A DNA stretch of 64,000 nt from Nemertoderma westbladi (lineage: Eukaryota; Animalia; Xenacoelomorpha), in NCBI GenBank assembly GCA_032718475.1, contig JAUCBJ010003676.1:62001-126000 (forward strand), in the 5' to 3' direction. The notes under the pieces were generated by a model. It was not told the origin of the DNA, made no database searches, and saw only the letters and a program-made list of their open reading frames with translations. A program made the translations under genes and the position numbers. Positions 3,082 to 48,548 of the stretch are shown piece after piece. Each line of letters opens with the position of its first letter. The stretch's first letter is position 1.

Positions 3082-3532
3082 TACCATGTCCCAGAATATA
3101 GTGTCGTAATTCAGTGACACCCCCCCCCCCCCCCCTTAATTTTTCTACAAATCTTAATGAGATTGCATGAAATTTGAAACAAAGAGAGTTTCACCTTCCG
3201 ACCACTGACTGGGTGAGCTAGATTTTTTATTTTTGCTTTCAATCTTTAGCTACAAGCGTTTAAAAAAAGTGTCTCCGGTGATACTTCACCAGTTACACTC
3301 CAGTTATTCTTCTACCTTATAGATGTTTGTTGGTACAAATGGAAAGCTGGCCATGCAAGGATTTCAAATATGTACCACAATTTGAATTTCGTTGAAAAAT
3401 AGCTAAGATATGGGCGTTCAAATGTTGCATGGTTTAGCACCGGCGCGAGGCTGTTTTATTATATTTAATAAATGCATCATAATCTGGAATATTTTGTTTA
3501 TCCAAATACGTAACTGGGCAACAATGCATTAC
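3082..3532. mobile_element. MITE copy 2, left arm (pairs with 39915-40365)
   Basis: ~430-bp inverted match to the arm ending at 40365; the Sola element sits at the centre. Confidence 0.8.
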
Positions 3533-4904
3533 ATCTGAAGCCCTCGGGGCAACAACATGTATGTTATGTACAAAAATGACAATTTGAGTAAATCGACTTT
3601 AAAGATTTTTTTTTATAAGATTTTTATATTCTACTTTTCACAATGACTATGGACCTGATATTACTATGTAATGCATATAATAGGTTATTAAACAATCATA
3701 GCTCACTATTTAGATCATTCATTCAATTAATTAGAAGATAATGCCATTTGTTTGTACATAACTTTTTGTTGCTCCAAAGATTCAGGACAACATTATGTTA
3801 TGTGAACAGAAACATTATGTCAAACTCATTGAGGGATAAAGAACGAAGTTTAATAATTCGAATTTAATGTAACAATCTTTGGCAGAAGTGTGTGGAATTG
3901 CTTAACAAATGTTCTGTAACCTAATATGCACACAAGATGGCGTGTAAGAAGATATAAGGCATTTTTTATCACTTTAGATGTTAAAAAGATTCTTCTTTGC
4001 ATTGAAGAGGGTTTCCACTTTCCAGTCTCAGTGGATAGATAGCATCTTTCAATATGCTAAAATTGTGCTGACCATGAGATCTTGTGGTGCTATGTTACCA
4101 GTGCTAACCGATCATCATCATTATCATCAGAACAAAATTATGTAAAATTCACTAAGCTAGTCTGTATTATATTGTTCAAATAAGACACTTTTAAATTTAA
4201 ATACAGTTTACCGATTACTTTTTTTTACCGATTAATACAGATTACCGATACAGTTTTACTCAGTTTTGATAAAATTACACAAACATGTATAAAATAAATG
4301 GGAGGATTAGTCAATTCTCCAGTAGTACAGTATACGTTGGTGTTAGTTTAGGTGCTTAGTCTATATCAGTATTATCACTCGAAGAGTTGCATTCAATCAA
4401 ATCAATGTAAAATCCGCGATGTGTGCGAGGAACGTATTCGAGCTGAGTTTTCAGGTCTGCTAACTTCTTCGGGTTCACACCATTTCGAGGCTGTTTCCTC
4501 CATCTGGTTTCACTGTCTATTAGTAGTGTTGTTGGTACTTATTTTCCCATTAGACGTTGCTGTTTAGCCTATTATTTGTACTTGTTGATCTACATTTTGG
4601 TAACGTATACCGTTATCTCACTTATTCGTACAAATTTAGCCGGTAGGCTAGATTACTACTTATTTTATTATATACCTTGTTAGTTTTATTCGTACCGGTT
4701 AGGGTATATATATACTATATATATATATCAAGGTAAGTTTGACATTTGTACATTTCGACATTTTGACATTTCGACATTCTGACTTGTTGATTTATTTGTA
4801 CCGGTTAGGGTATATATATACTATATATACCAAGGTAAGTTTGACACTTCAACATTCAGACACTTTGACATTTTATTACCCGTACTTGACGTATATAATA
4901 AGAC

Positions 4905-7900
4905 ATGAGTGACACACCCCATTCGACGAGATACCCACCTACCGACTATGACTCGTGCGACCCGGACAGATCGACAGTAGACGAACCGAGAAGGAGAACC
5001 CGAGATTCCACCGATGTCACACCGCTTGCGTCGCCGGTACCCCGAACGGAAATACCGGAAGCCGCAACGCGTGGCGATGGCAGAATCGAAGATTTCCTTA
5101 CCGTCCCGCAGACTAGATCGCGGGAACCGGACATGGTAAGTTCGACTGGAAGCCAGGAGAACGTTATTAGAAGTATAGGAGGACACATGGCCCAGATTAC
5201 TCGGAACCTTGGAGAAGGTTTTCGCGTTTTACGTGAGTTAACCGCCCCGATGTCGAGATACGAGTTCTACACCTTACAGGTAAGGATAGAAAGTAGGGTA
5301 CATGCCTCCGTAGATAAACTTAAAGGTTTAAACGAACTTGCAGAGTTGCGTGGCGACAACTTTACTCAGGTAAAGATAGTAGATAAATTAGTAAGTGCGA
5401 GAGAAAGCATTATCCAGTTTAAGTCAGTAATAAGATTGGCTCAACAGGAGCAGTTTGACCAACTGCTAGGTGAGTCAGTTTCGGACGCGTTGTTACAACC
5501 CGAAGAGGAAGAAGAACTCTACTGCCTGGACGGAAGGTTGGAAACGCTTACCAATTTTCTTCGTAGATGCGGCGTACCGATCGACGAACCGGAAGTCGAA
5601 CCGCGAGGGACAACGGAAGTTCTCACTACGGAAGGCTCAAAAGCCTACCAGCATCCACCTCTGGATAGATCGTTCGTTAGCGTACGGAGCGACGTTGGCA
5701 ACGTTGGCGACGTTAGTAGAACAGCGTCTGTAATTACTCGACAACAACAGGAGGTTGCACGCCGACAACAAGTCGCCGAGGAAGAAGCGCAACACCAGAT
5801 GGCACAGATCGCCATCGAAGGAGAGAAACAACATAGAGAGGACGAGGCAAGAATTGCGCAACTCAAGGCGCAAGCCGAATTCGAAGCTTCGGAAATGCGC
5901 AGACTGGAGGAGGACTTAGCGCGAGAAGCGGCGGCAGCAGCCGACGAGTTAGCACAGAAGAAAGCAGCATCCGACACTCGTGCCAAGTTGGAGGCGCGAC
6001 AAATAAACGCTCGATTAGCTATACAGGAAGCGGAGTTAGCGGCACAACAACAAGTAGCGGATCGACGTGAAAGGGAGATGCAACTACAGTTCGAACTAAA
6101 TCGTAGATCGCGCGAGACAGCGAACGCGCAAGCGGACCTCGAACTCGACGCGAGAGATAGATCTATAAGATCGCGAACTGGACACGACTTGTCTGCCCTG
6201 GATCGCATGGAAGCTCGTTATCGTGGAATACAGAAGCGAATCGAGGAACGAAGTGTGGGAGCGATAGATCGAGGAGAGGAGTTCGTCGAGGATTACTGTA
6301 AACGTTTTCCCCAAGTTATTCCTATGCTCAAACCCACGACTCCGATAAAACCGGTCTTCGTTACGAAACCTAAGGAAATAATGCCTGTGCGTTCGACGCA
6401 AGGCAACAGGTTTGTTGTGATGGAAATACCGCAACCTAGGGCGACTTCATCGCCAATTTTAGCAGGTAACATAACTAGTCCACCTACAGTAAGTCGTAGT
6501 CTACTTGTAGGAAGAGAGGAACCTGCGTTTATGACCATTAAACAGGTGAGTAAACCATTACAAGTTAAACCTGTGACGTGCTGTGCAAATCCAGTTATTT
6601 ACAGACCTACTACGAAACCCGACTATTTCACTCGACTGTTGACACAATGTTCGACGCAACCTACGACTTCGTGGAAGGCTTGCGAGCCTACCGAACTACG
6701 GATGAGGATGGATATGGGTAGTACCCACGGGATCGGACAACGTATAACGAGACCTACGACTTCGTGGAAGGCTTGCGAGCCTACCGAACAACGGAGAGCC
6801 GTAGATTCCGGACCACAACGGACGAGATCTAGAATAATACGTCGGACACGAACCCGCCAGCCACCTTATCCGGACGACAGTGACTCATCTAGCGACTCGG
6901 AGTCGACGGAACGGGAAATATTCCGTACTGGAGCGGCGGAGGATTACAAACGAGAGGAGAGGTCGACGAATCCATACATCGACAATCCACCTCGAGAAAC
7001 ACCCCAACAGAAACCCACGTTGAAACCAGCGGAAACGATCAGCGCTAAACAGTTCACCGAGATGACGGACAGAATAGCTCAACTCGAAGAACGACTCGAA
7101 GCGCAACCGTCGGATCGATCTCGAACCAGCGTGGAGTTGGAACAACCTAGACAACATCGACCACCGAGGAGAGAACAGGAGACTAGACGGACTCCGACAC
7201 ATCGAGAAGAAGATCCCATTAATAATTCCTACCGACGAACAACGCGCGGAAGGGAGCGACTGGACGACGCCACCGAACAGGGACGCGGACAGTTGGACTT
7301 AGTTAGCGAGATTGCGAAATTCGCGGCTAGACACGGATTAGCGGCACAGCAACCGCCGAAGTTCTCTGGCAACGCGAAACACTGGCGCACACTGGTAGAC
7401 TACGTAGAGTCCCAGATCGCTAAGTGTGCTTTCACCTCGACGGAGAAGTTTAATTACTTGCTACAAGTTCTGTCTGGTGAGCCGAAACGATTAGCGGAAA
7501 CCTTTATTGGAGTTCCCGATGCCTTTGAGTTGGCTTACGACCGTTTATATTCGATTTACGGAGGTAACGTAGCCATGGCTAAATCCATTATCGAAGACCT
7601 CTGCAGAGGAGGCAACATTTCGAAACCGATCGACCTTTTACGACTCGCGGACGAAATCAAGAACGCTATAGGGACTTTACGATCTATTGGACAACTCGAA
7701 TACGCTAACGCACCGACGGTTCTCATTCGAATAATCGGTCGACTTCACCATCGACTACGAAGAGAATGGCGACGCATCGAGTACCAGCGCGAAGAGGCCG
7801 GAGGGTTATTAAAACTCACCGATGTCTATCAACTGATTTCACGGGAGGCCGTGATCGAGACTCGATCGAACTATACTGATCACCACATCACGGCGGAAGG

Positions 7901-10900
7901 GATAGCTGTTTCTGCGCCGACTCGGACAAAACCGTTTCCGACGAACGCGAAAGCCGTTACTTACGCCACCCCTACTGAGACTTCTAAAGTTCTGACGCCT
8001 ATCGGCACCATGCAGCCACGACAACAGTTGCCGGCGGACTTTGTGGGATGCTCATACTGCAAGCGGAACGGCAGAAACCATAGCGGACATAAACTACGTA
8101 GATGTCGCGCTTTTAAAGAGTTAGGGATCGAGGAGAGGAGACTCCAAATCCAATCTCTAGATTCCTGTTGGAGATGTATGAAGCCAGGACACGTCCGGAA
8201 GGATTGCCCGAGCGACGATACATGTTCTCTGTGTGGACATAACCATGACGCGTTGCTTCACACAACCAGTCATACTCCGACCAGACGCTTTCGACGAGAG
8301 CATCCAGATAAAGCGGCTAGATGCGACGCGCTTTATAAGGAGCGTGCGCCGCACGAGATCCGTACCTTTTATACCGACTGTATGGATCAGTCAGGATCAT
8401 CGGACGAGGATGAGGAGGAAGACGACACTTTCTACGTGCATGCAGGTGAGGAACAGCCATCGATAACGCTCCTCACACAGAACCAATTGAAAGGGTTTAG
8501 CATGATTCCTATAAAGATTACCGGAACCCGAGGGAGCAAGCGTATATACGCCATCTTAGACTCTGCGTCATCGCATAGTTATGTCGACGAACAAGTAGCC
8601 GACGTAGTTACGGACATGAGTCAAGGTAAGACTGCTCAGTACACTGTAAGCAGCATGCATGGTAAGAGAGCGATCCCTGTGACAAGAGTAAAACTAACTT
8701 TAGACACTCTTCTTTCCAAAGTGGAACACAGCAAGGAGGAGCGCTCATTACTTCCGGTAAGAAATTTGACCTTTGCAGCCACGAAGGACTTTAGTAACTT
8801 GCTCGGCCCTGTGCCAGAGCAATCACCGGAAGATCGTAAGTATTTCCGACATCTTGGAATACCGGAATGTCCTGTTAATTATCGTTCCATTGCGATGTTA
8901 ATTGGGACAGACCAGTTTAACTTACATCAGGTATGGGAGACACGCCCATCTGTTATTACAGCGGGCAACCCCTACGCATGTAGAACTCCCATAGGTTGGT
9001 ATACTAGAGCACCAATACGTTCACTAGAGGTAAGTGACCAGGAGGACGACGTTTTGAGTACGTGTAGTTTATTGACTAACACGATAGATAATTCTCCTTC
9101 ACACTCCCGTGGTCCAATTGTACGGACAGCACTACGACAGACTTGCGTCACTAACGCAGACGCCACCGATACTGACGTAACCGATCTGGACACGACCATA
9201 CGGACCTCTGACTTACAACTACTTGCAGTAGACCAGGTTGTATTGACTACTGAAGACCAAAGGGTTGTTGCCGTGGATGACTCGATGAACGAGGATTTTG
9301 GAAGGCTTGCGAGCCTACCGAAAAATCCGAAGGTCATTGACCCCACCCACCAGGCTTCGACACCGGTCGTTGATCTTGGAAGGCTTGCGAGCCTACCGAT
9401 AGATCAAGAGGTTGTCAAACCGCCGCACGACGATTCGACGCCGACTAGTGACTCCGGAAGGCTTGCGAGCCTACCAGACGCATTGAAACTAGCCACCGCA
9501 GCGGACGAAGACGTGGATGAGGACCATGGCGCAGTGCAAGCAGCGCTTGACCGACTGCTGACTGAACGGACCATACAATGGTTGGAACAGGACTCAGCAG
9601 AACCCGGTAGTTACGAGACCGCTATGTCAGAACAGGAAAAACTGTCATTAAATATTATGAGAGATACCATTCGCCAGACCGCGAATGGCCACTATGAGGT
9701 TGGTATGTTGTGGCGCAATGGACAACCTAAGCTCGTTAACAATTACCCGCTTGCTTTGAGGCGACTCAAATCAATAAGGCAGCGATTGTTGCGAGACGAG
9801 ACGGCCCATATGCAATACAATGCACAACTTCAGACGTATCTCCAAAAGGGATACGCCATTAGGATGTTAAATCCCGAGGTAACCACAGACCAGACATATT
9901 ACCTGCCACATCATTTTGTTCGACACCCGGACAAACCTGGCAAGGTGCGTGTAGTCAACGACTGTGCTGCGCTTTACCAAGGGATGTCTATGAACAGCGA
10001 ACTGATGGATGGGCCGAATATGAATAATTACCTCATGGGAGTCCTAATGCGTTTTAGACAACGCAAAGTGGCTTTCACTTGTGACGTAGAGGCCATGTTT
10101 CACCAGGTTAAGGCTTTGGAGCGGGACAGGGACAGTTTGAGGTTTCTTTGGTATCCGGACGGAAACTTACAACTTCCGCCAGAAACTTACCAAATGCAGG
10201 TAAGAGTTTTTGGAGCCAGGGACAGCCCCAACTGCACCATGCACGCCTTAAAGCAGACAGCATTGGACAGACGAGACCAATTTGACCCAGAAGTAGTTCG
10301 GACCGTGGAACGAGATTTCTACGTGGATGACGGCCTCAAGAGTTGTGACACCTTGGAGCGCGCTACAACCATAGCACACCAACTCCAGGATTGTCTCGCT
10401 GAGGGCGGATTTCACCTGACGAAGTTCGCTTCCAACGAACCCGAACTGGTGAACTCATTTGACCCGACGGATCGTAGCGGAGGTGACTTAGACTTAGACT
10501 TAGAACCTCTGCCGACGACCAAAGTATTAGGACTTAGTTGGGACCCTAACACCGACAATTTTAGGGTACGTGTAAGGTCCAACGACCAGACTAGACCTCT
10601 CACTAAGAGGACTTGCTTATCGACCATGAGTCGATTGTATGACCCATTGTGTTTCATTAGTCCAGTGATCCTACATGCTAGAATCATACTCCGCAGCATT
10701 TGGCAAGCCGGACTGGAATGGGACGACCCCATCATCAGAAAAGTTAGCTGAGCGATGGAGGGACTGGGAAGCCCAACTGACGTTCCTACAAGACTATACC
10801 ATACCAAGGGTATACTTTCCTTTGCAAACCACCTTTCCTGCCGATTTAGAGCTTCACAGCTTTAGTGACGCTAGCAAGGATGGATTGGGGGTTACATTGT

Positions 10901-13755
10901 ACCTTAGACGACAAGTGACATCGGACAGCTACGATGTATCTCTCGTTACTTCAAGGGCTAGAACAATGCCATTGAAGTATATGACTGTACCTCGTGGGGA
11001 GCTGCAAGCCGGGACGATATCCACAGATATTGTCAGTCTAGTTCAACGCGAGCTGGAGGCTAACTTAAAGGTCACATATTGGACGGATGCGACGTTGGTA
11101 CTTTGGTACATAAACAACGAAGCATTTGAGTTCAAGACTTTCGTAGCCAACAGACGGGCTGAAATACTAGACCGGTCGCTCAAACAAGATTGGCGTCACT
11201 GTCCAGGGAAGCTGAACCCAGCTGACATCGCTTCACGGGGGATGCAACCGCTTGACTTTTGTAAACCGGACAATAAATCCTTTTGGTTTAGAGGACCCGA
11301 TTTCCTACAGCGACCATCAGACGAATGGCCACCGTTATTCGACGCGACAACCAACACCATACCAGAGGGTGCCAAGATAAAACTCGACAAGGTTGTCAAG
11401 TCTAAAGCGAAAGCCAACGCCAAGGTCAAGAGGAAAAAAGGACGGACGAAATCTGATGACCTGGACGCCAGACCTGACATTACGCCAGACGTCTCACCAG
11501 ACATTCGACCAGACGCTTGTACGAATCCTTCACCGGATGTTCCGCGGGAGATTTCACCAGACGTTTCGCGGGATTGTTCACCAGATTACTCGCCAGACTA
11601 TTCACCAGAAGAGACACTAGATTGTTCTCCGGATTGTTTGCCAGATTGTTTGTTGGAACTCTCGACAGAATGTCTACCGGACGTCTCACCAGACTTTCCA
11701 CCAGACATCTCGACAGACTGTCCACCAGGCTGTCTACCAGACTTTGAACTAGACTTTCTGACAGAAGTTACGCTAGACAGACTTTGGGACCGACGACAGG
11801 ACATTTCGCCGGATGTTCCGCGCTATGTCTCACCAGACGTCTCACCAGACTGTTCACCGGACGCTTCACCAGACTGTCTATTAGACACTCCATTAGAAGA
11901 CCCACTGGAGCGGACATTTAGAGACTTACCGAATTTGACTTCTTTGGACGACAAAGGTGTGGCCACAGCGATCACACTCCGCTCAAAGAAAGTACTTGAC
12001 TTACCACCTACAAGTAAACGTGTGACTAAGGTTAGGAAGCTAACAGGCTCACAGGAACACACTGACACTGTAGAGTTGAAACCATTACTGCCAGTCGACA
12101 CATTAGGTGCGGACGGCAAAGGTAAGACCGTAGAGATTGACGTAATTGGGGACTCAGACAAACCTACCGGAAGGCCCGTGGGCCTACCAAGTCCAGACAA
12201 GTATCCACACTACGACTACACCTTACCCGATGACGTCACCAACACTTACATTGACAGGATAGTGAACCTAACTAGATCATGGACTGACGCATGCCGCAAG
12301 TTAGCATGGCTCAAACGATTGAGACAATATGCCAGAGGCAAACGCGACTTTCCTAGAAGACTTACCTTAAAGGAAATTGGCCACTGTGAAGTTGATATCA
12401 TTAGACATTATCAATTGCGATATTTCGCACGAGAGTTCACAGCGATCAAACAAGGTAAACAGATTAAGTCTTCACCGATTTTGAGTTGGAGTCCGATTAT
12501 TTACCGGGGCTTACTTTGTCACAAGTCCAGACTCCAAAACATCGACTTTGCACTTGACTTTAGGTATCCTATCATCATACCGCAACACCATGAATTACAG
12601 CGCGCTATGATACTGGACGCACATGTACAACTCAAACACGTAGGTAGACACCACTGTCTATCACACTTACGCTCGAGGTTTGTACTGATTAGACCTAGTA
12701 AGGCACTGAGTTCGGTAACACGGAACTGTATTATTTGTAAGAAGGTGCACGCGAGGATAGGACACCAAGAAATGAGTGAACTACCACTAGCTAGATTACA
12801 GGCGTTTAGACCCCCTTTCACTGAGACAGGGATAGACTGTTTTGGACCCATAATCGCGAAACGCGGAAGGGTACAGGTAAAACGTTGGGGATTGATCTTC
12901 ACTTGTATGGCCAGCAGAGCTGTCCATATAGAGCGAGTGACAGACTTGACCACCAATGCCTTTATCCTAGCCTTACGGTGATTTATCGCTAGACGTGGAT
13001 TGGTCAAATCCATATACTGCGACCAAGGGACAAACTTTGTGGGTGCACGGAACGAAATAACCAGAGCTTTGAGAAAATTGGACCAAAACCAGATTTCCGA
13101 GGAACTACGTCCTCACTGTATTGTTTGGTTTTTCAATACTCCAGACAGTCCGTGGAGAGGCGGCGTTTGGGAAAGGCTGATTGGCTCAATAAAGACAGCT
13201 ATGGCTAAAGTCGTACCGACGCAACACATCTTGACAGACGACCAACTGACGACGTTACTAATTGAAATCGAAGCAATCTTAAATACTAGACCGATCGCTT
13301 TGATCCCAGACAATAACGACGTACAGTTTGCCTTGACACCAGCGCACCTGCTTATGCAGGCGCCGACGACACTGTTGCCCATTTCGGTACCCGTTGATAG
13401 TGACGGATACGGCAACAAGGCTTGGAAAATCACTCAATTACTTGCAAATAAATTCTGGGAAATATGGCAGAAATATTATTTGCCCTCTATTTCGACCAGA
13501 ACCTCTTGGTATCTAAATACCCGATGTTTAAGACGTGGTGACCATGTTTTATTGGCTGAAGCTAATCTGAAAAGACGGTTTTGGTTGACTGGAGTCATTT
13601 TGACCACGCACCCTACATCTGGTGTAGTAAGGACAGTTACTGTAAGGACTATCGACGGACGTACCGTAGATAGGCCTGTACAACGTCTCGTACTCCTTGA
13701 GGAGACTAGAAACAAGACGGGAGACTACAAATCTCCACCCAATATTAGTAAATAG
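4905..13755 (+). pseudogene. BEL-1 gag-pol polyprotein (frameshift near 10740, in-frame TGA at 12979-12981)
   Basis: Three BEL Gag knuckles (e.g. CWRCMKPGHVRKDC, CSLCGHNHDALLH), protease ILDSASS, RT YYLPHH/FYVDD, RNase H FSDAS/NPADIASRG, integrase HHCC, GIDCFGP, CDQGTNF, WERL. Confidence 0.93.
11460..11890 (+). repeat. Degenerate 12-bp (SPDx) tandem repeat in the BEL-1 RNase H-integrase linker
   Basis: Recurrent TCACCAGAC-type units encoding SPDV/SPDC/LPDC in frame. Confidence 0.8.
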
Positions 13756-14489
13756 ATGTGGGACCTTTGTTGGCCGCCACATAGACCTACTGTATTTTAG
13801 TTATTGGTATTTGTATTACTGTACGTGCATTTGTAATCCTCTTCACTGTAGATAGAGACAGCGGTGGAATTCCATTGTCTTTATACGTGAACATGGAGGG
13901 TAGTACCCTTATGTATCACATAGGAGCGGGATTGTGTGTACAGTAGGAATGGAATTCCACTTGGAACCCACAAGTGAGACAATTTTCAAAAATTATTAGA
14001 CAAATCCATTTATTTGGATTTAAATTTAAGAAAAACGATTCTCCAGTGAAAGCAAATTCTAGAATACAGCTAGATAAAAATTAAAATTGGGGAGGACAAG
14101 AGCGGATGGAAGGCTTGCGAGCCTACCGATAAATTTTTTTTGGAAAAAGAAAATCGGCCTTGTTCTACGTAGTCGTGTCTACTATTATTTAGACCAATTA
14201 ATTCTCGACTGCATTATTTTCTTTGGGAAGTAGCATGGGAAATTAAAAGGTGAGTATTTTAGACTCGCGGCTAGTTTACCCAGAATTCGTTTTTTATCGG
14301 CACATTTTTTGGATTAGGAGCCAGTGCGAAATCACGCGAACCCGAAATCATTAGGCAAAATGGGTTGGGGTTTAGAGCAGAGTTGAGCCAAAAGCCGACA
14401 AATTCTAAGTCACCTCACATCTAACCTCTATTTTGTGCTTCATCTAGTAGAAACGTAACGATATGTAACCACATATATATTCGTATACG

Positions 14490-17400
14490 ATGGCGGAGAA
14501 GATGTATAAAGAGTTACGTCAAGGGTTTACGCAAGAACAAGAGCACCAGGCGCCATTCAATCTTTATGGAGCTAAAAACTTTAGTGTGTTTGGAGTGGAG
14601 AGTATGGCTAGGAGTACGGCCAAGCTCGCTAAATCCAAGGCGGACCCGAATGTTACGCGACAGCGGTTGGATGCATACAACAAAAGAACGGAGGAATTAC
14701 GCGCGGAGTACAATGCGTTATATCCCTACGATGCGTTATGCGACGCTAGCGACATTTGCGAGGATCCAGACACCGAAATACGCCGATTGTATCATACGCT
14801 GCAATATTTGACGGTAAACGAACCCTTACCTGCAGCTAGAGACGAATTTGAAGGAATGCATCTTTATAGACGCGCTCGAGGAGCGGATCCAGAGACCAAG
14901 GACGCGTTCTCCATATACAAACTGTTTTATAAATGTGGAGCGTGTATGCGCGAGCAAGACAACGCGATTCCTATGCGGTTGAACTCGGAGAACCCCGAGC
15001 CGATATTAGCGCGATGTTCACACCACCAAAGTCTACGTTACCAAGAAGGCGGATACCCTTTGACAAATCCGTATCATTCGTTTAAAATGAGTGGACCGAA
15101 CGCGGGTGAGATCGTTATTTACGAACCCAAATTAGTCGAACCAGACGTCTACAGCATGGTAGTGGACGAGTCTAATAAGTCGACACAAGAGAAACGGGAA
15201 GCTTTGAGCCTCTACAGGGCGTACAAGGCGTACGAGAAAGGCGAGATCGAGGAGTTCGGCGGAAGGCTCGCGAGCCTACCATTCTATTGGATATCCCACG
15301 ATCAAACCGAACCCAAGGAGATGACACCCGAGCTCTTCGATAGTATCACCTTTGCTCAGCGTTTGTCGCAGAGACTACAGATACCTCATGTCGAGATGAC
15401 GCGAGAACCTCAGCCCCATTCTACTGGAGCGATAGTACCGGTTGCGAGACCAACTAGTTTTCCTATTAGTATACCGACCCGGAAGGAGACAACTTACGAG
15501 ATCCCTATAGTTGAACACCCGGAGATCATCTCGAACCTGGATTTCCTCCCATCGGTTACCTTCGGTGATGTGTTAGAGTCAGCCGAGTTGCGTAAAGTAA
15601 TAGTTCAAAAAATCGTACGCAACGTGCCTCCACATATCACGGACTTTAAGGAAGTGGATCGCGCGGGGACGGATATCGCACCTTGTATCTTGCGAGGATA
15701 TCTGACGAAAACGATTCGATTATGGATCGGAGTTGGAACGTTTGAGACCGACACCGATATCGCGACCAATTGGACCGGTAAACCTATTAGTTTCGATGAT
15801 GAAAAGTCGATTGGGAGAATTTGGAACCCTACCGACGATTTACTCGACGATTGGGACGTGACTAGCCGATCTCTGAAAGAGAATGGTTATATGTTTTACG
15901 ATAATGAAGGAGGAAGCCATCAGCAAAGCCTCACTTCAAAGACTATACAGATTAGAGCACCAGATGGCGTGTTACATGTCTTCAGCCGACAGAGGAGTGA
16001 TAGGAAGATGCCTATGCCGGAAGGAACGACGCAAAGACACGCGATGATAAAACGGATAGTTAAATCCATGGACCTGGCTTGTAGCATAGAAGCTAGGATG
16101 TTGCCAAAGGCCGTGCGAGACGTTGTGTTGGATAAGAGCATCGTCAAGATCGGATCCGGTGTACGGGATGACCTCATTAGCGACTTTGCAGGGATGCCCA
16201 CGGAAGAGGACCGATTGCCTACGCCATACGTGGATACTAGACCATTGTTGCTTTGGGCTATTGAGCAAGGATATTTTAGGGAGTATAACACGCTAAAAAC
16301 TGGGACGGGTTATATCTCATATCTAATGTTCAGTTGGGATTACAAGGAGAGTAAGAGGAACAAATACACGGACGTATACGGAGAGGGAGATACCCCCGGC
16401 GTAAACGAGTTCGAGTCACAGTTGAAGTGGCGAGGTTGCGTGTATTGGGCGATTACTTCACCTCCGCGGATAATCTTGCAATACTATTTAGCGATAGAAT
16501 CTTCGGTTAACGTTTGTTTCATCGCGGACGTAGTATCCAGAACCCTAAAGCGACACCCGTTATGTCTTGGCGAAGGACATACCTTTTACGATGGAGGAAG
16601 GACGCATACTGATGTATTCCGACGATTTCTCCAACCCTTTTATAACACCGATGCGCACTGCGAAGTTTTCACGCGAGCGGGACTTAGCGTTTTCAGGGAC
16701 GTCTATCTCACTCACGCGGGAAGTCTAGTTGACAGACCGTCGATGTTAACGTTAGTACCCTACGACGGGGAACGCCACGCGGAATTCGAACGCCCGGAAG
16801 GATCCTGGAAGGCTCGCGAGCCTACCGCCCATCATGACGATGTGGATCCGACCGAGTTGGCGCTAATAGACGAACCGTTACGGCAACTCATAGAAATAGA
16901 GGAGAACCTTCCGAGGAAGACGCGAACTGAGATACGCGAGTTGGAGAAAAGCGATGCCATGGTTTGTGTACAACCTACGGAGACGAACATACCGACTGAC
17001 CCGGATGATGAAAATTATCACGTGGACGGTAGCGCTCGCCCCATCGGAGATCTCATCTATGAGCGAGTTTGGTATCCTGCCAACACTATTTGTGGCAGAT
17101 GTGGAGCAACTGGCCATCACGCAAAGAAGTGCGGAGCGAAGCACATATCTCTACCGGATTTAGTATGCAACTGGTGCGGGGATCAACGTTCGCACACTTT
17201 CTACACTTGCTGGCGTTTCGTGGCGCAGTGTACTTATTGTAATATTAAGGGCCATAGGGCATCCGAATGTCAACTTAGAGACGTCCCCTTTGAGCACATG
17301 TCAGTTAAAATCGTTCGACAATTATTCGACCATTGGGAGGATCTAGCAGACGAGCATGTATCGACGCAGCGACGCCGCTTCCCTATGAGAGCACATTTGG

Positions 17401-17831
17401 GATTTTGGGCCTTAAACTCTCTCATAATGTCAAAGGAAGGATATGTATCGGCTATGCCTCAGTACGATGAATTGTTGGAGGTATTGGATATATTGCCGTT
17501 GGACAGTGGATTCAAAGTTGTGCGGGACTATTTCTTACAAGTGCACCCCGACAACAAGAATACTTGGAACTTTCAAACTGTGGTGAACAAGATTACAGCC
17601 GGAGAATTCGATAAACTGCGAGTTGAACAGCGGAATCGAGGAGCCTGGCATTCGATAGCTTGGGCATACCGGAGCGCATTTTATCACAAACGCGTAACCT
17701 CGTGCATTCCGGACGAGACCGACGTTTTGCGTGAGACTGGCTTCAAGGCCACGCCGTTAGCAGAGAAGACGCGTCACCCACAGGATGATCAGCAATTTCG
17801 TATACTCAAAGCCCAGAAGGCCGGACAATAG
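14490..17831 (+). CDS. BEL-1 accessory ORF: unknown N-terminal domain + DEDD 3'-5' exonuclease (WRN/RNase D-like) + three zinc knuckles; same frame resumes past one TAG to 18245
   Basis: ExoI-like FYDNEG (~15894), TIQIRAPDGVLHVF, ExoII-like LPKAVRDVVLDKSIVKIGSGVRDD, YVDT, ExoIII-like YYLAIE; knuckles CGRCGATGHHAKKC, CNWCGDQRSHTFYTC, CTYCNIKGHRASEC. Confidence 0.8.
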   Translation: MAEKMYKELRQGFTQEQEHQAPFNLYGAKNFSVFGVESMARSTAKLAKSKADPNVTRQRLDAYNKRTEELRAEYNALYPYDALCDASDICEDPDTEIRRLYHTLQYLTVNEPLPAARDEFEGMHLYRRARGADPETKDAFSIYKLFYKCGACMREQDNAIPMRLNSENPEPILARCSHHQSLRYQEGGYPLTNPYHSFKMSGPNAGEIVIYEPKLVEPDVYSMVVDESNKSTQEKREALSLYRAYKAYEKGEIEEFGGRLASLPFYWISHDQTEPKEMTPELFDSITFAQRLSQRLQIPHVEMTREPQPHSTGAIVPVARPTSFPISIPTRKETTYEIPIVEHPEIISNLDFLPSVTFGDVLESAELRKVIVQKIVRNVPPHITDFKEVDRAGTDIAPCILRGYLTKTIRLWIGVGTFETDTDIATNWTGKPISFDDEKSIGRIWNPTDDLLDDWDVTSRSLKENGYMFYDNEGGSHQQSLTSKTIQIRAPDGVLHVFSRQRSDRKMPMPEGTTQRHAMIKRIVKSMDLACSIEARMLPKAVRDVVLDKSIVKIGSGVRDDLISDFAGMPTEEDRLPTPYVDTRPLLLWAIEQGYFREYNTLKTGTGYISYLMFSWDYKESKRNKYTDVYGEGDTPGVNEFESQLKWRGCVYWAITSPPRIILQYYLAIESSVNVCFIADVVSRTLKRHPLCLGEGHTFYDGGRTHTDVFRRFLQPFYNTDAHCEVFTRAGLSVFRDVYLTHAGSLVDRPSMLTLVPYDGERHAEFERPEGSWKAREPTAHHDDVDPTELALIDEPLRQLIEIEENLPRKTRTEIRELEKSDAMVCVQPTETNIPTDPDDENYHVDGSARPIGDLIYERVWYPANTICGRCGATGHHAKKCGAKHISLPDLVCNWCGDQRSHTFYTCWRFVAQCTYCNIKGHRASECQLRDVPFEHMSVKIVRQLFDHWEDLADEHVSTQRRRFPMRAHLGFWALNSLIMSKEGYVSAMPQYDELLEVLDILPLDSGFKVVRDYFLQVHPDNKNTWNFQTVVNKITAGEFDKLRVEQRNRGAWHSIAWAYRSAFYHKRVTSCIPDETDVLRETGFKATPLAEKTRHPQDDQQFRILKAQKAGQ

Positions 17832-18898
17832 ATTAAGAAGATAGCTAATGTCGCCGAGAGGACGACATCGAAGTCGCAAATCTGGATGACTCGGGGCACG
17901 GTTTCCCTTGCTAGAGAACCACGCGGAGGGACAGGATACGCTTTGACTGAACCCATTAGGATTCAAACGACGTCAGAGAGCGAGGTGTCAACGGACGGAA
18001 CGGTCCTACCCTTTCGACTTCCTCCTAGCGTTGTAGAGACTCGATCCGATGTTAAGCCGACAGTTGGAATCGGACGAGGATTTAGAGGATTGAGCGCACG
18101 ACGGATGTGCGAAACTCCCGTCGTCCCCTTTCCTAGTGTTTTGGAACCACCGACGACTCGACGCCGAAGTCCGAGCCCAGTTCGACCTCGACCACCCCCC
18201 AATCGCACTAGAGGACGTGGACGAGCCCGCTCAGCGAAGGAATAGGAAGCGAGTGGAAGGAAGGCTTGCGAGCCTACCGATTTGGATATTTCATTTGGAT
18301 ATTATATTTGGATATTTATTTGGATACTTATATTTGGATATTATATTTGGATATTTATATTGGACATTATATTTGAATGTTGGGTTTGGAGGAGCGAGAT
18401 ATGGAAAGGAAGGCTTGCGAGTCTACCGTTAGCAATTAATGCTCAGGAGAAGATATCCAGACCAGCAGGACGAACTTTTAAGATCGTCATGAGGACATTA
18501 TTTGGAAGTTATTAGCGCATTGTGTTTATATTATATTTGAACTGATTTAATTTGGTGAAGGTTTATTATGTATATTTACAATATATAAAGATTTATCGAA
18601 AAGGTTACAATTATTTGTTCGATTTGTTTTGATTTATTTGTTCTGATTTGTTTAATTTGCTTACCTTGATAACCGAAAGCCTTTTTTTTTGTATTTTAGG
18701 CACTAAAGTTAATTAGTAAATTTGTATTTGTATGTACGATCGATTGTATTTACGCCGTATCTGCAATATTAAGTATGCAATAATTAGATAGTGATTATAT
18801 TTATATTTTAGGCCCTACCAGTAGATTTAGAAGTAGTTTGTAAATATTTTATATTTCGATTGGTGAAAACAGTCTTACTTACTGTTTTCATGGAGCGG

Positions 18899-19310
18899 TG
18901 ATGAATTATTTCACTATAAGGTAGCATTTGTAGTTTAACTTTAACGTAAAAACTTTCGAAAATCCAACGCATTTTGATTAAGTTACAGTAATGTAATATG
19001 CCTATTCATATTTGTACACATAAAACCCTTAGGTACTCTCGTGGTGTAGTGGTCAGATGGTTAAGGCGTTGGTTACATTACAGATAGGTTACGAGTTCGA
19101 ATCCCGGTCGGGAAATTTGTATTTTGGGGCCATTTATTTTCGTTTGGTGCTAATTGGTGGACCAATGAGAAGCGTACAACGTAGCGAATGATGAGCCAGG
19201 CCAATCATAGGGCATAAATTATCTTATTGCTCAAATGTGAGGCAGTGGAAAATTCTGTTAGGATTCCATGTCCCAGATTAGTGTAAGGGCCGGATTGCGT
19301 TGAATGATGA
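18899..19310 (+). repeat. BEL-1 3' LTR, left part
   Basis: Starts TG directly after the PPT; its ~115-bp CCAAT-containing unit (~19190-19305) continues as a second copy after BEL-2 at 35847-35960. Confidence 0.75.
19036..19113 (+). other. tRNA-derived sequence (Pol III box A/box B) inside the BEL-1 LTR
   Basis: GTGGTGTAGTGG (box A, 19041), GGTTAAGGCG, GTTCGAATCCC (box B, 19095); imperfect cloverleaf, no credible anticodon arm. Confidence 0.6.
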
Positions 19311-21537
19311 TGTTAAACAACCGCGACACCTATACTAACAGCAGAACTGTTGAACAGACAAATACCCGTATACCTCTCTGCCAACCTAATGAGCTCTCGC
19401 CTAACCAATAAGACACAAAGACTGCTCTACTGTTAAGTAAAGGGGATCAGGAGTGTGCTATTACTAAATTGTAAGGGTTGCTAAATACAAAACCGCTACT
19501 TACCGTTGGATGGCGCTAATCTGCCGTCCGCTAATATATTTTACTAAATTTACACAACTCCTGCAAAATCGCTTGTTCCTTTCTCTACCGATCGCTCGAT
19601 AGAGAGCTAACTGTTCGAATCTATGAGCCACGCGGGAATAACCAAAACAATAAACCCGAGTCGGCTCCCTAAGCTTACTTAAGACGAGTGCGAGGGGCTT
19701 TGCACTCAGAGTATATTCTTACGCCTAATTTTACCACTGAAATACGCTAATGCCTACGTCTTTTCTAATCGCGAATACTGGGGGTTCCCTAACGGAATGT
19801 GTGAATGCGAGAATATTTAAAATAATCAAAATGGTACAGTACAATGTCTTTCGTAGGTGATACCGCTCTGGGTCTAAACTTGCCTGCAGCTGGCTTTAGG
19901 CCAGCAACTCACTAGTGTCTTGCGTACTGACTATTGCGATCTAGTTTATTACCCGCTAATGCAAATAACCGCTTAGCGTGAATAGTTTACAGTACTCTAA
20001 TTATTACCTTAGCTACTCTCCGCTATGCTGCGTACTAATTCTTAATTTTTACTAATCAATTACAGTCACAAATATGTAACAGCGTACTAATTACTAAGAG
20101 TTCCAGAATGCGTAATTCTAATTTATTACGCAACAGGTTTCGCTAGTAATAGCCTAAATTGCCGTATTACTTTGACCTAAGCAGTAGTTAATTGTTGTAA
20201 CTAAGAAATAGAAATCAATCAAAAGGGAATGGGGTGCCTACCTAAGCATTCGTAATCATAGGCACACTTCAGTAACACACCAATCAGCATCAGCAATCAC
20301 AGATCACAATAGTACAACTTGCAATTATACAATCTGCAATTATATAATTCGCAACATAATAATTCGCAATTGACTAATTCGCAATCTACTTACTCGCAAC
20401 TTACTTACTGTAAGGTATGCAGGCCCCTCCCGGGTACATCTAGGCTTCCTAACTAACCCAATTCCTGCCCCCTAATACTAAATAGAGACAAAACCTGGAT
20501 CATCAGCCCCCTAATTACTGTACCAGCGAGCGGTCTCCAACCTACAGTCCAAATCGCCCGACCGCAACGTTGACCCCCGCCAGCGTTGCCCGCTTTTGAA
20601 TCCTCCGCTCTCCCTAGTCGCTCAACCCCCCGATGTGCCCACCGCCCACTGGCACCTTAGCCCTTCATTATGCTAATAGCTACCGTAGCGGCGCATGCAA
20701 ATCACAAAGTCTGACAGTCTCAGAAATCCCTTAGGATTATTGCGCAGAAAGGAATCACATAGAACCATTAATCAAAAGTAGAAATCATAGTTCAGTTGTA
20801 ATTAGCAGTAATCGAAGGAATTAATTGAGAAACACAATCGAGAGTAATCGCACTAGCAAATCATTCCAAGAAATTAATCAAAATTAGCAAATTGCAGAAA
20901 ATACGCTAAAATATCCGTCAAAAATTGAATAGGGACAGCTCAGCAAGTACAAAGATGATAGCAGATCATGTGAGGTGTCATGGGGCAGATTGGTAAGGCT
21001 CTACCGGCACACCGCCAATTTATAGGTGATCCGGGTGGGTGATGCAATAGGGTGACTCAATCGCTCTCCTATTGGCTCTCCAGTCCGTGCTAGCATTAGA
21101 CCAACCTGGAAGCAGTTAGTCCAATAAGGAGGCCGGATTGTAGCCCTATTGCTCCCCAACCTCAAATTATTACCATATATGGTAATGGTTCACGTCCCTG
21201 GCTGCTGAATGGCCAGGACAGCGTCCCTATATGCTAGCCCTATCGATGCTAATATCAGCAAGCACAAAATCCAGGGTCCGAATAAACTTGCTACCCTGGA
21301 ACTATCTACATATATCCTAATACAAAATTACGTAGGTAGGGCTACATACTATACAAAATGGATGGATTCAAAATATATGGGCGTTTCGATTTCCCTATCT
21401 AAATATCATTGCGTTATTATGCCTTATCTAAAATATTATGCTGCACAACGGACTAATATTACATACAGTATAACGGACTAATATTGTGTACAGTATAACG
21501 ACTAATATATGTGGATACAGCGCCATATACCGTAACA
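19311..21537 (-). repeat. BEL-2 3' LTR (2227 bp)
   Basis: Near-identical to 33619-35846 (about ten differences by eye). Confidence 0.95.
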
Positions 21538-22411
21538 CCGCTCCAAGGGAAATCATACAATGTTTCCCTCCAATTGTAGAAGAGTATAAGGTGATGTATA
21601 CAAACAAAATAAATTTCTTCCAAATAATCTAGAAAACACAATAATTCTACTATTTACAAATATTGCCATAGATATTGCATAATGAATTTACATACAAATT
21701 AAAATTACAAAATATTATCTCTCTCAATGTTAACGATTATTACATACAAATTAAATTTACAAAAATACTGTTTCTCATTCGTTCTACATAATGATTACTA
21801 CATACAAAATTAAATTACAAAAATATTACTTCCTTTATTTATTTACAAATTGACTGTCTACCTATTGAAATGGAACATGGCTAGGACAATGTCCCCCATT
21901 TCCCATCTCAAATTAACGATCAACATTAACAAGATAAACTAAATATAAACGTATTTGAGGCTAAATTTTTAACTAAATTGCATTAAAGGCCGATAATCAA
22001 ATTAAATATAAAATACGTAATAATTTCTTTCATTTTCGGACTTTACTTAATTTCTTATAAAAAACGCAAATCATCTTGGTTTGATGATTGCTCAGGTAAG
22101 TGAAAGGAGTAAGCCAAACCCGCGGGTTTGTCTCCCCAATCACTTCCTTTGCCTCTTTCAATAAACTTTAGAGCAAATAAAGTCATATACACAAAATCAA
22201 ATATAATATAGGCTCAAAATCATATTTCCAACGGACTATAAAATAAAATTATTTCCTTTCAATATTTTTCGGCCTTCGAAAATAAAACTCTAAAATATGG
22301 ATACGACTAGTGTATATGAGTCCAGTCGAATGATTGATCAAAACCTACGATATGCATCAGAGCGACGATGATGTATATGTCTAGAGTTTGACGCTCCGTG
22401 ATATTATAGTC

Positions 22412-23512
22412 TCATCGGCTAGCTCCTGGGTCTCTCGGGCTCGCTCCCTTCTCCAGATACACCAGTCTACCCCCTGTAGACTCTGTTGACGGCGTCCTTG
22501 AGGCGTCACTTCCCGGAACCGGCGACGACGTTCCCTGGGCACTGACTATCTCCCGACTGGTGCTCCTCCCTCGGCCTCGTCCCATTTGCCGTGTCCCTGT
22601 GGGCGCCTCCGCCAACTCCTCTTTCTTCAACTTTATAGAATGGAACTGCTCGTCCTTGGCTTGACGCTTGCCAAGGACTCCTCCTTCTGGTACTTGCCGC
22701 GAGCTGTGAGGTCCGGCTGTTGTCTCTGTGGGCGCGGCGGTCCTGATCCTCCACTCGTTCAGAGGTCAATGACCCCAAACGAGTCTCCTTAGGCCGCCAA
22801 TTGTGCGCTGGGTAATAAATCTAGACGTATATATCAGAGCGACGATGATATATAAAGGATTGGACATATTCGGGCTTAATAATGCGTTCGTCGAAACTTC
22901 CCGAAATAATTTGGAGTAAATATCGTATAAATCGCGGATCGTGGGTATGGTTAGTAGACGGATGGACTGCGCGAATCTCGTCTGGATACTCAGGCGTGAC
23001 CTTCCTTTCCTGGTGAAGCGAAGTGAACGTGGTCCAGGAACTCGAGTCCCGTGCCGCTTCGCGCCGCGCCTCTAGGTCTTTATAGGCTCGGTATAGCGAA
23101 ATGGCCGCCACCGTGTCTATCAAAGCGGGTGTCGAACAGGTTTAATCTCCGTATACGGATCTAATGTCGTAACGGTCGGCGTAATGGGTCTCGGAGTTCG
23201 CTTTCCGCTGAAGTCGATACTGATCATCGGGTTGCTCATCGGGTAACCTCCCTCGTTATATCTAAGGAACTGGTGAGCTTGACATCGCGTTAATATCGGT
23301 TCTGGATGTTGCTCGTCTAGTCGGTCGGGAATCGTGGGTTTGTATTTCCCATTTAGCTCCATCACCAACCGCCCATGGTAGTAAACGTTCGAATCTTTAC
23401 ATCCCGGTCGCGCGAATGGTAACTCCGCCTCCTCTCTGGCAGTAAATCCTCTGCGCGGTTGCGCTCTAATATCCTTCTCCATTATGCCCGCGTATATACA
23501 TATATATCCCAA
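22412..23512 (-). pseudogene. BEL-2 accessory ORF remnant (internally deleted, frameshifted homolog of the BEL-1 accessory ORF)
   Basis: IPDRLDEQHPEPILTRCQAHQFLRYNEGGYPMSNP matches BEL-1 IPMRLNSENPEPILARCSHHQSLRYQEGGYPLTNP; ISLYRAYK vs LSLYRAYK; RRGFT vs RQGFT; RG-rich tail. Confidence 0.85.
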
Positions 23513-24240
23513 TAAGTGTTCCGTTACGCAAACCAGTTACACCGTGGGTAATCAGTTAGATGTCGCAGAAGGACAGACCTCCCGAACCCCCCCCCCCGCC
23601 TTCCAGCAGTTCAGGTTCGACTCTCTAGATCCCGTCTCTTCCTAACTAACTATCCTCTAACCTATTCCCATGCATAGCGCAAAACTTTGGAGATAAACTG
23701 GCCGTGACCAACTTACTTTTTGATGCCCAAACTACTCCCATTACTCGTACTAAACTACAGTAGTTAGAAAGGACTATAGCCACAATACTCGACTATACCA
23801 AACCCACAGGTTTGATAATCGAACATCACACATCCTGCAAACTACTGAGTGGGGTCCATGTACGCCTCTGGTGCTACTAACCTTTAGCACCTTAGTTGCA
23901 CTGTTGGCACCAATCTGTGGAAGTTGCTAAACTCAATTTACACTCCTATGTAATATAGCCGTCACCATGGTTTCTAAATGCTATTTTCCAGGCTTCACGA
24001 CTTTTCAAATTACTGTTTATCTATAGACGAATTCTAAAACGCGTCTATACACAGCGTCTGGAATTGTCTTGGGTTCACTTTTCTAATTTTAAAATTTTAA
24101 TTTTTCCAAAAATTTTGAAAATAAAATTTTGTTTTGATACCCACCAGACAAAACTCAACGCAAATCACCACAACCCCGCTCCTATGCATTTCCTTGTATT
24201 TGCATACGAGGAATGCATACGAAGTGAGTTGCGTCCAACA

Positions 24241-32538: not shown

Positions 32539-33618
32539 AGTCTAATAATGTTTGCCTTCCGGCAAAATATCTCGCAAAGTTCGAGATATAATTATAATTT
32601 AACCGAAAATACGGTCAAATTATTTGTCAAATAATCAGTTGGTCCAAAATGTCAAAATAAATTCGCAATGCAATATTGCGAATTTAATGGGGTATATAGT
32701 TATAGCAAATACTAGCACAATATTTAAACAAAATATTATTATATAGCTACTATAGCAATTAAATACCGGTATGACACAAAATAGCTTTGAATCTAATACA
32801 AAATATTCAAAATAAACTTGCCACCCGATTATTTCTAATTTTACATATATAGCTCTAATCAACGTAATTTTAATTTCAAATATTATATGTATCCACTAGC
32901 GCGTGGCTACATCTTCGGGTTGCGACTCTCTCTAACTCTCTCTCTAACTTGAGCGATTCAAAACCATGGCCGGCTAAACCTAAATATCCTAACTAATAAA
33001 TTGAGTTCAGCTTCGCAGTTAAACAACCGATAATTTTTTACTGCTTCCACAAACACAATGGTGCCAACAGAACAACTAACCTTGTTTGCTGTGAGATTCC
33101 ACGTCCGCGTCCAAAGATTCAGGCTTTTCGCTGATTGCAAACCGAACCCGCAGACCCACACGAACCCCAAACTCAGAAGTTCTGTCTTGCCATGTATCTC
33201 CAGATGGTATAAAATAACTAAGCGGTTACCTAACATACCGGTACAAAACTCTAGAATTTTACAAAATAATTTTGACCGAAACTGAATTCTCGCAAACCTA
33301 GCTAATAATTTTCAAAAAACTTACTAATTACAATTTGCCCTAAGGCCTAAGCAACTGTATTCGCAATTAGTAAAAACGCACTACCGTACATCCACTGTAT
33401 GCAGTACAGTAAGTAAAACAGTACACCAACCTAACAGCCTAATGCTACTGTGTGTGTGGTACGGCAAACAAATGTCCTTCTACCGTACGCAGTAACAGCA
33501 ATCAGCCTAATGTACTACTGTACTATCGTACGCAACCAGTGAATACAGTAATCTAAACTAGCAGCCTAAGAATACTCTATTGACCGCTGCAAGCAACAGC
33601 CAATAAAACATACCTTAC

Positions 33619-40365: not shown

Positions 40366-40429
40366 TATACAGGTGACATATTTTTATTTATTTATTTATT
40401 TATTCCAGACAATATATATATATATCAAT

Positions 40430-48363: not shown

Positions 48364-48548
48364 ATATATGAGAACTATTGTTTTTTCTTATTGATAGTAA
48401 GAATGTGTTGGATGTGAATGAATTATTTTTTCTGTTGCATACTTTCTGATAAATAGTTATGTAGTCATAGTAGATTTGGTTGATTGTTTTCCCTATTATG
48501 TTAAGGGAAACAAATTTATGAGCAGTTGAATTGGGTTAATATCTGGCT

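Follow-up and report, generated by a model that had tools for sequence, protein, structure and literature searches.

The stretch of DNA analysed here (the window, 64 kb) holds two large BEL/Pao retrotransposons, one of which interrupts the other. BEL-1 lies on the + strand, and BEL-2 is inserted within its LTR. BEL-1 comprises a gag-PR-RT frame of 1949 aa (4902..10751) that encodes DUF1759, CCHC knuckles and the start of Peptidase_A17 and in this copy breaks toward the 3' side, at its end, an RNase H-integrase frame (10669..13755) with a single in-frame stop (12979-12981), and an accessory ORF of 1113 aa (14490..17831). Its LTR begins after a purine tract that is common to BEL-1 and BEL-2, and is split into a portion preceding the BEL-2 insertion (18899..19310) and a portion following it (35852..36115), the latter with a PBS-like site next to it; PBS-like sites here are of the TGG kind. 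BEL-2 (19311..35846, - strand) is bounded by LTRs at 19311-21537 and 33619-35846 that are 99.5% identical and by a 5-bp target duplication, and contains an open gag-pol of 2766 aa (24241-32541, - strand); its accessory ORF is deleted down to a remnant. Thus a flanking LTR pair with its target duplication is present for BEL-2; a single LTR of BEL-1 lies inside the window.

Both Gag proteins combine DUF1759 with CCHC knuckles and both elements have the order PR-RT-RH-IN with Peptidase_A17 and DUF5641, which places them in BEL/Pao (Belpaoviridae). Their RTs are 59% identical to each other, and the closest RT relatives stand at about 45-47%. A third and more distant BEL element, BEL-3, shares the domain layout of these two and retains a remnant of the accessory ORF that includes the exonuclease part; it sits on a long branch of an RT tree that was made by a quick method from 43 of 122 rows. 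The internal part of BEL-1 alone (~14 kb) and BEL-2 (16.5 kb) are above the genome range of 4.2-10 kb given in the ICTV profile of the family, which does not bar membership; the same profile describes BEL/Pao replication as poorly understood. Observed-to-expected CpG is 1.06-1.2 in the elements versus 0.64-0.68 in the flanks.

The BEL-1 accessory ORF is predicted to contain a DEDDy/WRN-like exonuclease domain (~15750-16640), and has three CCHC-like zinc-knuckle motifs at ~17090-17270. DEDDy exonucleases are marked by D-x-E in Exo I, D in Exo II and Y-x3-D in Exo III. D-x-E is recognizable by eye in BEL-1, in BEL-3 and in P0122, a relative of the accessory ORF (E 1.7e-4), and the Exo III position is E in BEL-1. 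Atlas reads the ORF as WRN-like (0.92; 23 of 30 matches, 153 shared features); structure predictions reach a pLDDT of 30-32, and neither Pfam and PDB searches nor two word-indexed protein searches returned a match. Bdelloid LTR retrotransposons have a comparable arrangement, with a DEDDy-exonuclease ORF3 behind pol, that is, an additional ORF with a WRN/RNase D-like domain (PMC5408684, in which the words 'hairpin' and 'stem-loop' do not occur). The present ORF differs in belonging to BEL/Pao, in its length and in its three knuckle-like motifs.

The initial annotation of this DNA listed twelve dispersed copies of a 20-nt hairpin in BEL-1, and all 12 have been located, every one on the + strand. 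They fold as it described (2 bp, an A.A mismatch, 5 bp and a tetraloop), and the mismatch is retained in 12/12. The most upstream copy (5630..5649), in the Gag N-terminal region, has an atypical loop. Two copies follow in the Gag linker (6673..6692, in the first unit of a 93-nt duplication, and 6766..6785) and three in the PR-RT linker (9300..9319, 9378..9397 and 9456..9475); at 9300 the hairpin is carried by a longer stem, bulged by 2 nt on the 3' side, and that at 9378 has two double changes in the lower stem relative to it. The copy in the RNase H-integrase linker (12169..12188) has a CGUG loop and, like BEL-2, a C-G closing pair. One copy lies in the non-coding spacer from pol to the accessory ORF (14108..14127), two within that ORF (15261..15280 and 16807..16826) and two in the 3' non-coding region (18259..18278 and 18408..18427). 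The outermost letters are T..G in six copies and C..A in four, and these two pairs are mutually reverse-complementary.

Nine of the 12 copies are coding (the exceptions being 14108, 18259 and 18408), and all three phases are used: phase 0 at 9300, 9378, 9456, 12169 and 15261, read as GRLASLP or GRPVGLP; phase 1 at 6673, 6766 and 16807, read as WKACEPT or WKAREPT; and phase 2 at 5630, read as EGSKAYQ. The WKACEPT, GRLASLP and non-coding readings were already in the earlier list, from which the third frame was missing. The proposal that constraint acts on nucleic acid and not on peptide is borne out by the use of three frames and by three 78-nt tandem units in which the hairpin is identical at 20/20 positions and the other letters are shared at 20-29 of 58 (34-50%). 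A peptide repeat is ruled out by the three frames, in both families, and a peptide of the GRLASLP/KAxEPT type is missing in 119/120 relatives, the remaining one having a chance GRLESL. Central polypurine tracts were also considered and rejected: the BEL-1 motif offers merely six purines and the BEL-2 motif none.

BEL-2 has a separate set, seven hairpins on its sense strand, which surfaced in a blind repeat search and whose stem is unlike that of BEL-1, with the same tetraloop class and the same linker regions. This second set, missing from the initial annotation, strongly reinforces its case. In the order of transcription (all - strand), they lie in the Gag N-terminal region (32223..32239), in the Gag linker upstream of DUF1759 (30745..30761), in the DUF1759-to-knuckles interval (29413..29429, with a U-A closing pair), in the PR-RT linker (28124..28140, with G-C versus A-U in four other copies), in the RNase H-integrase linker (25887..25903, atop a long stem), in the spacer from pol to the accessory remnant (23798..23814, atop a stem of 20 bp that contains a 2-nt bulge) and in the 3' non-coding region (22114..22130). 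A pattern drawn from the BEL-2 copies recovers seven sense-strand sites against 0.02 by chance, the pattern being derived from those same copies. A hairpin motif of this type was looked for in BEL-3 and none was found.

The loop is Y-G-Y-G in 18/19 copies (UGCG in 9, CGCG in 5, CGUG in 2, UGUG in 2 and another loop in 1), letters 1 and 3 alternating between C and U and letters 2 and 4 being constant G; judged by its letters, it is of the UGCG/UNCG tetraloop type. This loop class spans two families with different stems. Across the 19 copies, double changes occur at 7/10 pairs, and the covariation score is 0.496, versus 0.253 for shuffled and at most 0.212 for slid alignments, so that the covariation check proposed with the initial annotation came out in favour of the fold. 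Much of this covariation represents a single between-family event; within a single family, double changes affect the closing pair (BEL-1 and BEL-2 alike) and, in BEL-2, also pairs 4 and 8. Read on the sense strand, each of the four wobble cells at BEL-2 pairs 1-7 is G.U, with no C.A. Arm-to-arm correction of near-palindromes can imitate covariation. Folding in context (+/-100 nt) predicts the hairpin in 10/12 BEL-1 copies, 6673 and 9456 being those without it; among all 19, four have no predicted fold in context, or one below 0.5. An extended stem was rejected as a general feature: longer stems are significant (p<0.05) in only 3/19 copies (Fisher p 0.07). A search of Rfam with positions 3500-20000 returned no family at gathering score and one sub-threshold, unrelated match.

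Within the 64 kb there is no further site at up to three mismatches from the BEL-1 motif, in keeping with the earlier reading of it, and no hairpin in either orientation outside BEL-1 and BEL-2. Shuffled sequence yields a mean of 0.27 matches, and the both-strand count of 23 was reached in 0/100 shuffles. The strand bias of BEL-1 (12/12 sense, p 0.0005; by cluster 8/8, p 0.008) is mirrored by a structure-only pattern, which finds 13 sense-strand sites over BEL-1 and 0 antisense. Hairpins recur at intervals of 1-3 kb along both elements and are spaced more evenly than random (BEL-2, CV 0.22, p 0.002; BEL-1 clusters, CV 0.35, p 0.016); this evenness is in part a reflection of linker positions. 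Overall, 14/19 copies are coding, and at 11 of 12 tested coding sites (the accessory-ORF pair left out) at most ~6 of 120 relatives align. No hairpin lies in the LTR or leader of either element. Rickettsia palindromic elements and REP-type palindromes are likewise read in frame inside protein linkers. The BEL hairpins differ from these in being much shorter, of fixed orientation and present in two elements only, with no spread to other DNA of the window; mobile palindromes of the RPE/REP type occur in either orientation and outside a single host element, whereas all copies here are on the sense strand and, within the 64 kb, confined to BEL-1 and BEL-2. Viral and metagenome collections contain 21 viral and 37 metagenome loci with one motif match each, none with a tblastn match to the element, and viral contigs contain no RT relative of the elements. 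Searches of the open literature, outside Repbase, listed no description of repeats like these in any LTR element, BEL/Pao included.

Other copies of BEL-1 modify the picture of individual hairpins. At positions 18422 and 5639 the window departs from essentially all compared contigs of runs X1, X3 and X4. The G.U pair at 18408, which had been cited as a variant of the motif, is therefore a private mutation of this copy and not covariation. The CAAA loop at 5630 is present in the window as claimed, and part of it (5639) is equally private. The compensatory variant at 12169 is a real double change as far as the window's copy goes, the 40 of 1413 rows compared bearing on other sites. X4 record 26 represents a sister lineage that is abundant; it has 26 differences in 131 nt and keeps 19/20 letters of the hairpin at 15261; its single hairpin change (15266) is synonymous and breaks pair 6-15, the partner being unchanged. 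The motif is thus kept in the family, as had been expected, but with one stem pair broken in this lineage. Conservation at 15261 is no more than marginal: 1/20 letters changed against 15/53 (p 0.027), and 1/6 against 10/19 (p 0.14) if third positions are taken by themselves. In an older low-depth copy the loop and the closing pair together carry three changes, the diverged contig of X4 record 16 lacks the hairpin at 6673, and one X3 contig has a weak joint 18248-18404. Copies of the BEL-1 family also show CpG-type decay.

The reading that we favour, at a little under an even chance, is that the zinc knuckles of Gag may read the hairpins as packaging signals that are dispersed along the RNA and specific to each family. 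The initial annotation had proposed packaging, export or self-recognition, with Gag or the accessory knuckles as putative binders. The Gag knuckles of each element would select and condense its own, unusually long RNA; the motif would act as folded RNA, its loop guanines providing the putative knuckle contact and its stem, including the A.A mismatch in BEL-1, probably conferring family identity. If many evenly spaced sites work jointly, individual sites can be gained, duplicated or damaged; new copies would arise when reverse transcription duplicates a short stretch or switches template, and would persist only at places where seven additional residues do no harm to the protein. The textbook packaging signal of a retroelement is one region near the 5' end. 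That no copy lies in the LTR or leader, the usual place of psi, counts against the packaging reading, as does BEL-3, which has the same layout but no motif. So do the four BEL-1 copies within or 3' of the accessory ORF, which a spliced mRNA would share, the broken pair and marginal conservation at 15261, the changes in the older copy and the four copies with weak or no predicted fold. In BEL-1 as in BEL-2, the stem-loops share a candidate recognition motif and lie on the putatively packaged strand. Dispersed packaging signals are described for MS2, STNV and the HBV pregenome in extracts of PMC6281560, and have in common with the BEL hairpins a loop motif that recurs in numerous short stem-loops along the packaged strand, within coding regions. 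In contrast, those signals are degenerate; the BEL hairpins, as candidate capsid ligands, are near-identical, family-specific 17-20-mers in an LTR retrotransposon. In Rous sarcoma virus psi, the UGCG tetraloop of SL-C is bound by an NC zinc knuckle (PMC5035970 and PMC7291142, both in part); UGCG is the loop of 9/19 and Y-G-Y-G that of 18/19 BEL copies, in elements that encode CCHC knuckles. The RSV loop, however, is a single one in a compact 5' leader signal, versus 7-12 copies across a BEL element and none in its leader, and the same extracts rate it as of secondary importance for packaging, which also counts against the packaging reading.

The hairpins might instead be RNA tags for the accessory protein, which would coat RNA of its own family for export, transport or shielding from host silencing; this we regard as unlikely. 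The predicted combination of exonuclease domain and knuckles, with its remnant in BEL-2, suits such a role, and since 4/12 BEL-1 copies lie within or 3' of the accessory ORF, a spliced mRNA would carry hairpins just as the genomic RNA does. CpG-type decay in a family of CpG-rich elements makes silencing pressure plausible. Egalitarian, a host protein, reads bulged stem-loops with an exonuclease-homology domain, two being needed per transcript, and its cargo signals include the I-factor ILS (PMC13186709, in part). The likeness extends to more than one stem-loop per RNA, the BEL reader being predicted only; but Egalitarian signals are long bent stems with little sequence identity, and most BEL copies lack such a stem. 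Moreover, the predicted WRN-like fold finds no backing in the structure models or in Pfam, BEL-3 has an exonuclease remnant without hairpins, and the young BEL-2 keeps its hairpins despite the deleted accessory ORF, although help in trans is possible. That the near-palindromes are repeated dimerisation sites, at which loop-loop contact leads to an extended duplex so that only genomes of the same family pair and recombine, appears quite unlikely. The loops UGCG, CGCG, CGUG and UGUG are self-complementary if wobble is counted, and the predicted mean gain of duplex over two hairpins is -13.8 (BEL-1), -11.4 (BEL-2) and +5.3 (cross-family) kcal/mol; any near-palindrome yields such a gain, which is therefore no test of dimerisation. 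The fixed A.A mismatch is unnecessary for pairing, a loop of 4 nt is poorly suited to kissing, and identical sites in such number would pair intramolecularly too.

Two further readings are both, in our estimate, very improbable. In one, an anti-silencing or chromatin protein encoded by the element would bind the motif as double-stranded DNA, in the manner of VANC; VANDALs are DNA transposons, and the 9-bp motif that VANC recognises on their dsDNA lies within non-coding tandem repeats (PMC5735166, in part). The systems share a transposon accessory protein beside a multi-copy, family-specific motif, with fast turnover in the VANC case (same extract), and the near-palindromic form, the central CpG and the reverse-complementary outer letters (T..G and C..A) would suit DNA; but fixed orientation, wobbles that are G.U only in BEL-2 and coupled double changes suit a folded single strand, and the covarying BEL hairpins lie mostly in coding linkers and never in the LTR. 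In the other, the motif has no function: it would be a micro-repeat that RT template switching at a pause hairpin has multiplied and kept uniform, and that linkers tolerate. Tandem duplications, a copy number that varies (X4 record 16, the weak X3 joint), the avoidance of conserved domains and the broken pair of the sister lineage are all consistent with this; it leaves unexplained one loop class across two families with rewritten stems, the invariant A.A mismatch, the even spacing and the absence from the LTRs and the rest of the window.

A broader proposal, which we consider somewhat doubtful, is that giant BEL/Pao elements of one clade mark their RNA with a family barcode, a shared loop on a family-specific stem in near-regular repeats through genes and spacers. 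Either Gag or the element's exonuclease-fold/knuckle protein would read it, and each family would then package, pair or protect its own RNA only. If true, LTR retrotransposons would possess a code for recognising self at the level of RNA, a counterpart of VANC/VANDAL. Two natural versions side by side provide a testable cognate/non-cognate pair of 20-nt RNAs, together with small zinc-knuckle domains. Were the packaging reading true, it would extend dispersed packaging signals to the Ortervirales and would account for related, co-expressed families not packaging each other's RNA.

A pattern scan recovers precisely the 12 copies of a 20-nt hairpin that the initial annotation had placed along BEL-1 (5630-18427), a BEL/Pao retrotransposon; all 12 are on the + strand, and chance alone would yield 0.27. 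The proposed independence of reading frame and the proposed fold are borne out: nine copies are coding, with all three phases represented, and three are non-coding; every copy offers 2 bp, an A.A mismatch, 5 bp and a tetraloop, and 10 of the 12 retain that fold when predicted within a 220-nt context. Three hairpins sit in 78-nt tandem units that are identical inside the hairpin (20/20) and match outside it at just 29, 20 and 25 of 58 letters, so that the hairpin letters appear to have been held or homogenised while the remainder drifted. The flanking positions (-1 and +21) read T..G in 6 copies, C..A in 4 and A..G in 2; in no copy do they form a Watson-Crick pair (permutation p 0.002, or 0.008 once twins are collapsed).

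Contigs from four sequencing runs cover BEL-1 densely (20269 in run X1); its family is therefore multi-copy. Among the differences between the window copy and others, read from 40 of 1413 rows, those at 18422 and 5639 belong to the window copy alone; the G.U variant of the 18408 hairpin, earlier taken as motif variation, is thus a change of this copy. Hairpin number varies among copies: one (X4 record 16) lacks the hairpin at 6673, and a single weak joint leaves out 18249-18403. The window copy's own lineage is identical to it over 15185-15335 (X4 record 25), whereas an abundant sister lineage (X4 record 26) differs there at 26 of 131 letters, yet at only 1 of 20 inside the hairpin (p 0.027 for 73 tabulated letters, 0.056 for the whole record, 0.14 for third positions). 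That single change is synonymous and disrupts a pair; as to whether family copies keep the motif, the 15261 site thus weakly backs conservation of sequence and does not back pairing. The sister lineage's flanks there are T..T. An older copy shows CpG-type decay within the hairpin loop.

BEL-1 is assigned to BEL/Pao by DUF1759, Peptidase_A17, an integrase zinc domain and DUF5641, and in the window copy the reading frame breaks once and contains in-frame stops. Downstream of pol lies an accessory ORF of 1113 aa (14490-17831) with zinc-knuckle-like motifs, a segment of which is grouped by Atlas with WRN-like exonucleases (0.92, 23 of 30 hits), a predicted assignment; the one relative in the databases, P0122, likewise combines an exonuclease segment with knuckles. 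The ORF or a remnant occurs in all three BEL elements (also 23070-23332, - strand, and 62260-62770, + strand), the WRN-like segment with its D-x-E motif being common to BEL-1 and BEL-3; DEDDy ORF3s are already described in rotifer LTR elements (PMC5408684). Two duplicated splice-donor-like sites before gag (4730 and 4832) and an acceptor-like site (about 14447) ahead of the accessory ORF suggest that this ORF may be expressed from an env-style spliced mRNA. BEL-1 has no LTR before gag (4400-4900); behind its sole LTR (18899-19310 and, past BEL-2, 35852-36115) come a PBS-like site and ~1.5 kb of DNA resembling a leader (within 35852-37650). The arrangement looks like what is left of a tandem pair, or like an insertion that is circularly permuted (one-LTR circle). 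A stretch of this LTR (19043-19115) is tRNA-like by eye, with no call from ARAGORN or Rfam. A degenerate 12-bp tandem array (11460-11890) encodes a Pro/Asp/Cys-rich linker from RNase H to integrase. The BEL-1/BEL-2 stack appears to lie inside a DNA-transposon-like element (DUF7869) that has terminal inverted repeats (about 3530-4400 and 37651-39910); elsewhere lie a MITE-like repeat (1579-1981, 3083-3566, 39880-40372), a 17-bp-unit inverted-repeat element (44300-45600), a 42-bp satellite array (46000-48400) and, at 300-500, an exon-like stretch by eye (C-terminus of a trypsin-type serine protease).

BEL-2, nested inside BEL-1's only LTR, is its closest relative (RT identity 59%, versus at most 47% for all database hits and 40% for BEL-3). 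It (19311-35846) is young, with 2228-bp LTRs 99.5% identical and a 5-bp target duplication; gag-pol is open and the accessory ORF deleted. A blind search for dispersed 14-mers gave a set of six in BEL-2, whereas no group in BEL-3 had more than three members. The six are hairpins with a stem unlike that of BEL-1 and a Y-G-Y-G loop identical in class; a loop-and-stem scan added a seventh, making seven sense-strand sites versus 0.02 by chance for a pattern written after the sites were known. They occupy three frames. Both elements carry hairpins in the Gag N-terminus, Gag linker, PR-RT linker, RH-IN linker, pol-accessory spacer and 3' region; codon phase is equal at the RH-IN site only, so most sites probably arose by re-seeding and were not passed down with their letters intact. 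Of the coding hairpins tested, 7/7 in BEL-1 and 4/5 in BEL-2 fall in stretches to which no more than about 6 of 120 relatives can be aligned. Gaps in BEL-2 are 1289-2237 nt (CV 0.22, p 0.002), and spacing of the BEL-1 clusters has a CV of 0.35 (p 0.016). A model built from all 19 copies finds no additional site at E below 1 within the window, and none in LTRs, leader or BEL-3; blind hairpin grouping concurs. In viral and metagenome collections the motif is never repeated: all 58 matching loci contain it just once, and none of them is a BEL element.

The 19 copies show double changes at 7 of 10 pairs, 80% of pair cells being paired versus 64.6% when shuffled, and a covariation score (0.496) above every slid control; much of this is a single event between the two families. 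Within families, double changes affect the closing pair in both, and pairs 4 and 8 in BEL-2; the lower stems of the BEL-1 hairpins at 9300 and 9378 also differ in this way. Loop letters 1 and 3 alternate C/U, letters 2 and 4 are G in 18 of 19 copies, and in BEL-2 all four wobbles read G.U on the sense strand. Together these features of the sequence favour a hairpin that would act as folded sense strand more than as duplex DNA. Longer stems are not general (3/19 significant, Fisher p 0.07; antisense 2/19). A DNA motif like VANC (PMC5735166), from which the hairpins differ in placement, is improbable, and neutral spread of the sequence is just as improbable.

The hairpins may be dispersed packaging signals read by Gag zinc knuckles along the element RNA, the reading we favour most but hold tentatively, at a little short of even. 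They would work in the same manner as the dispersed stem-loops described for MS2, STNV and HBV (PMC6281560), and differ in position from retroviral psi; in RSV psi the G of a UGCG loop touches an NC knuckle, the loop's role in packaging being reported as secondary (PMC5035970, PMC7291142). A tag for the element's accessory protein, for which Egl offers a precedent (PMC13186709), is unlikely, and is weakened by BEL-3, where an accessory remnant is present and hairpins are absent. Dimer sites are more doubtful again: predicted duplexes are favoured within families and not between BEL-1 and BEL-2, but any palindrome would give that preference. In the literature searched, which did not extend to Repbase, no comparable hairpin system in LTR retrotransposons appeared. 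The hairpin pattern is real. Both elements are longer than the range that the ICTV profile gives for genomes (4.2-10 kb; PMC8742986), a length at which distributed condensation would be favoured.
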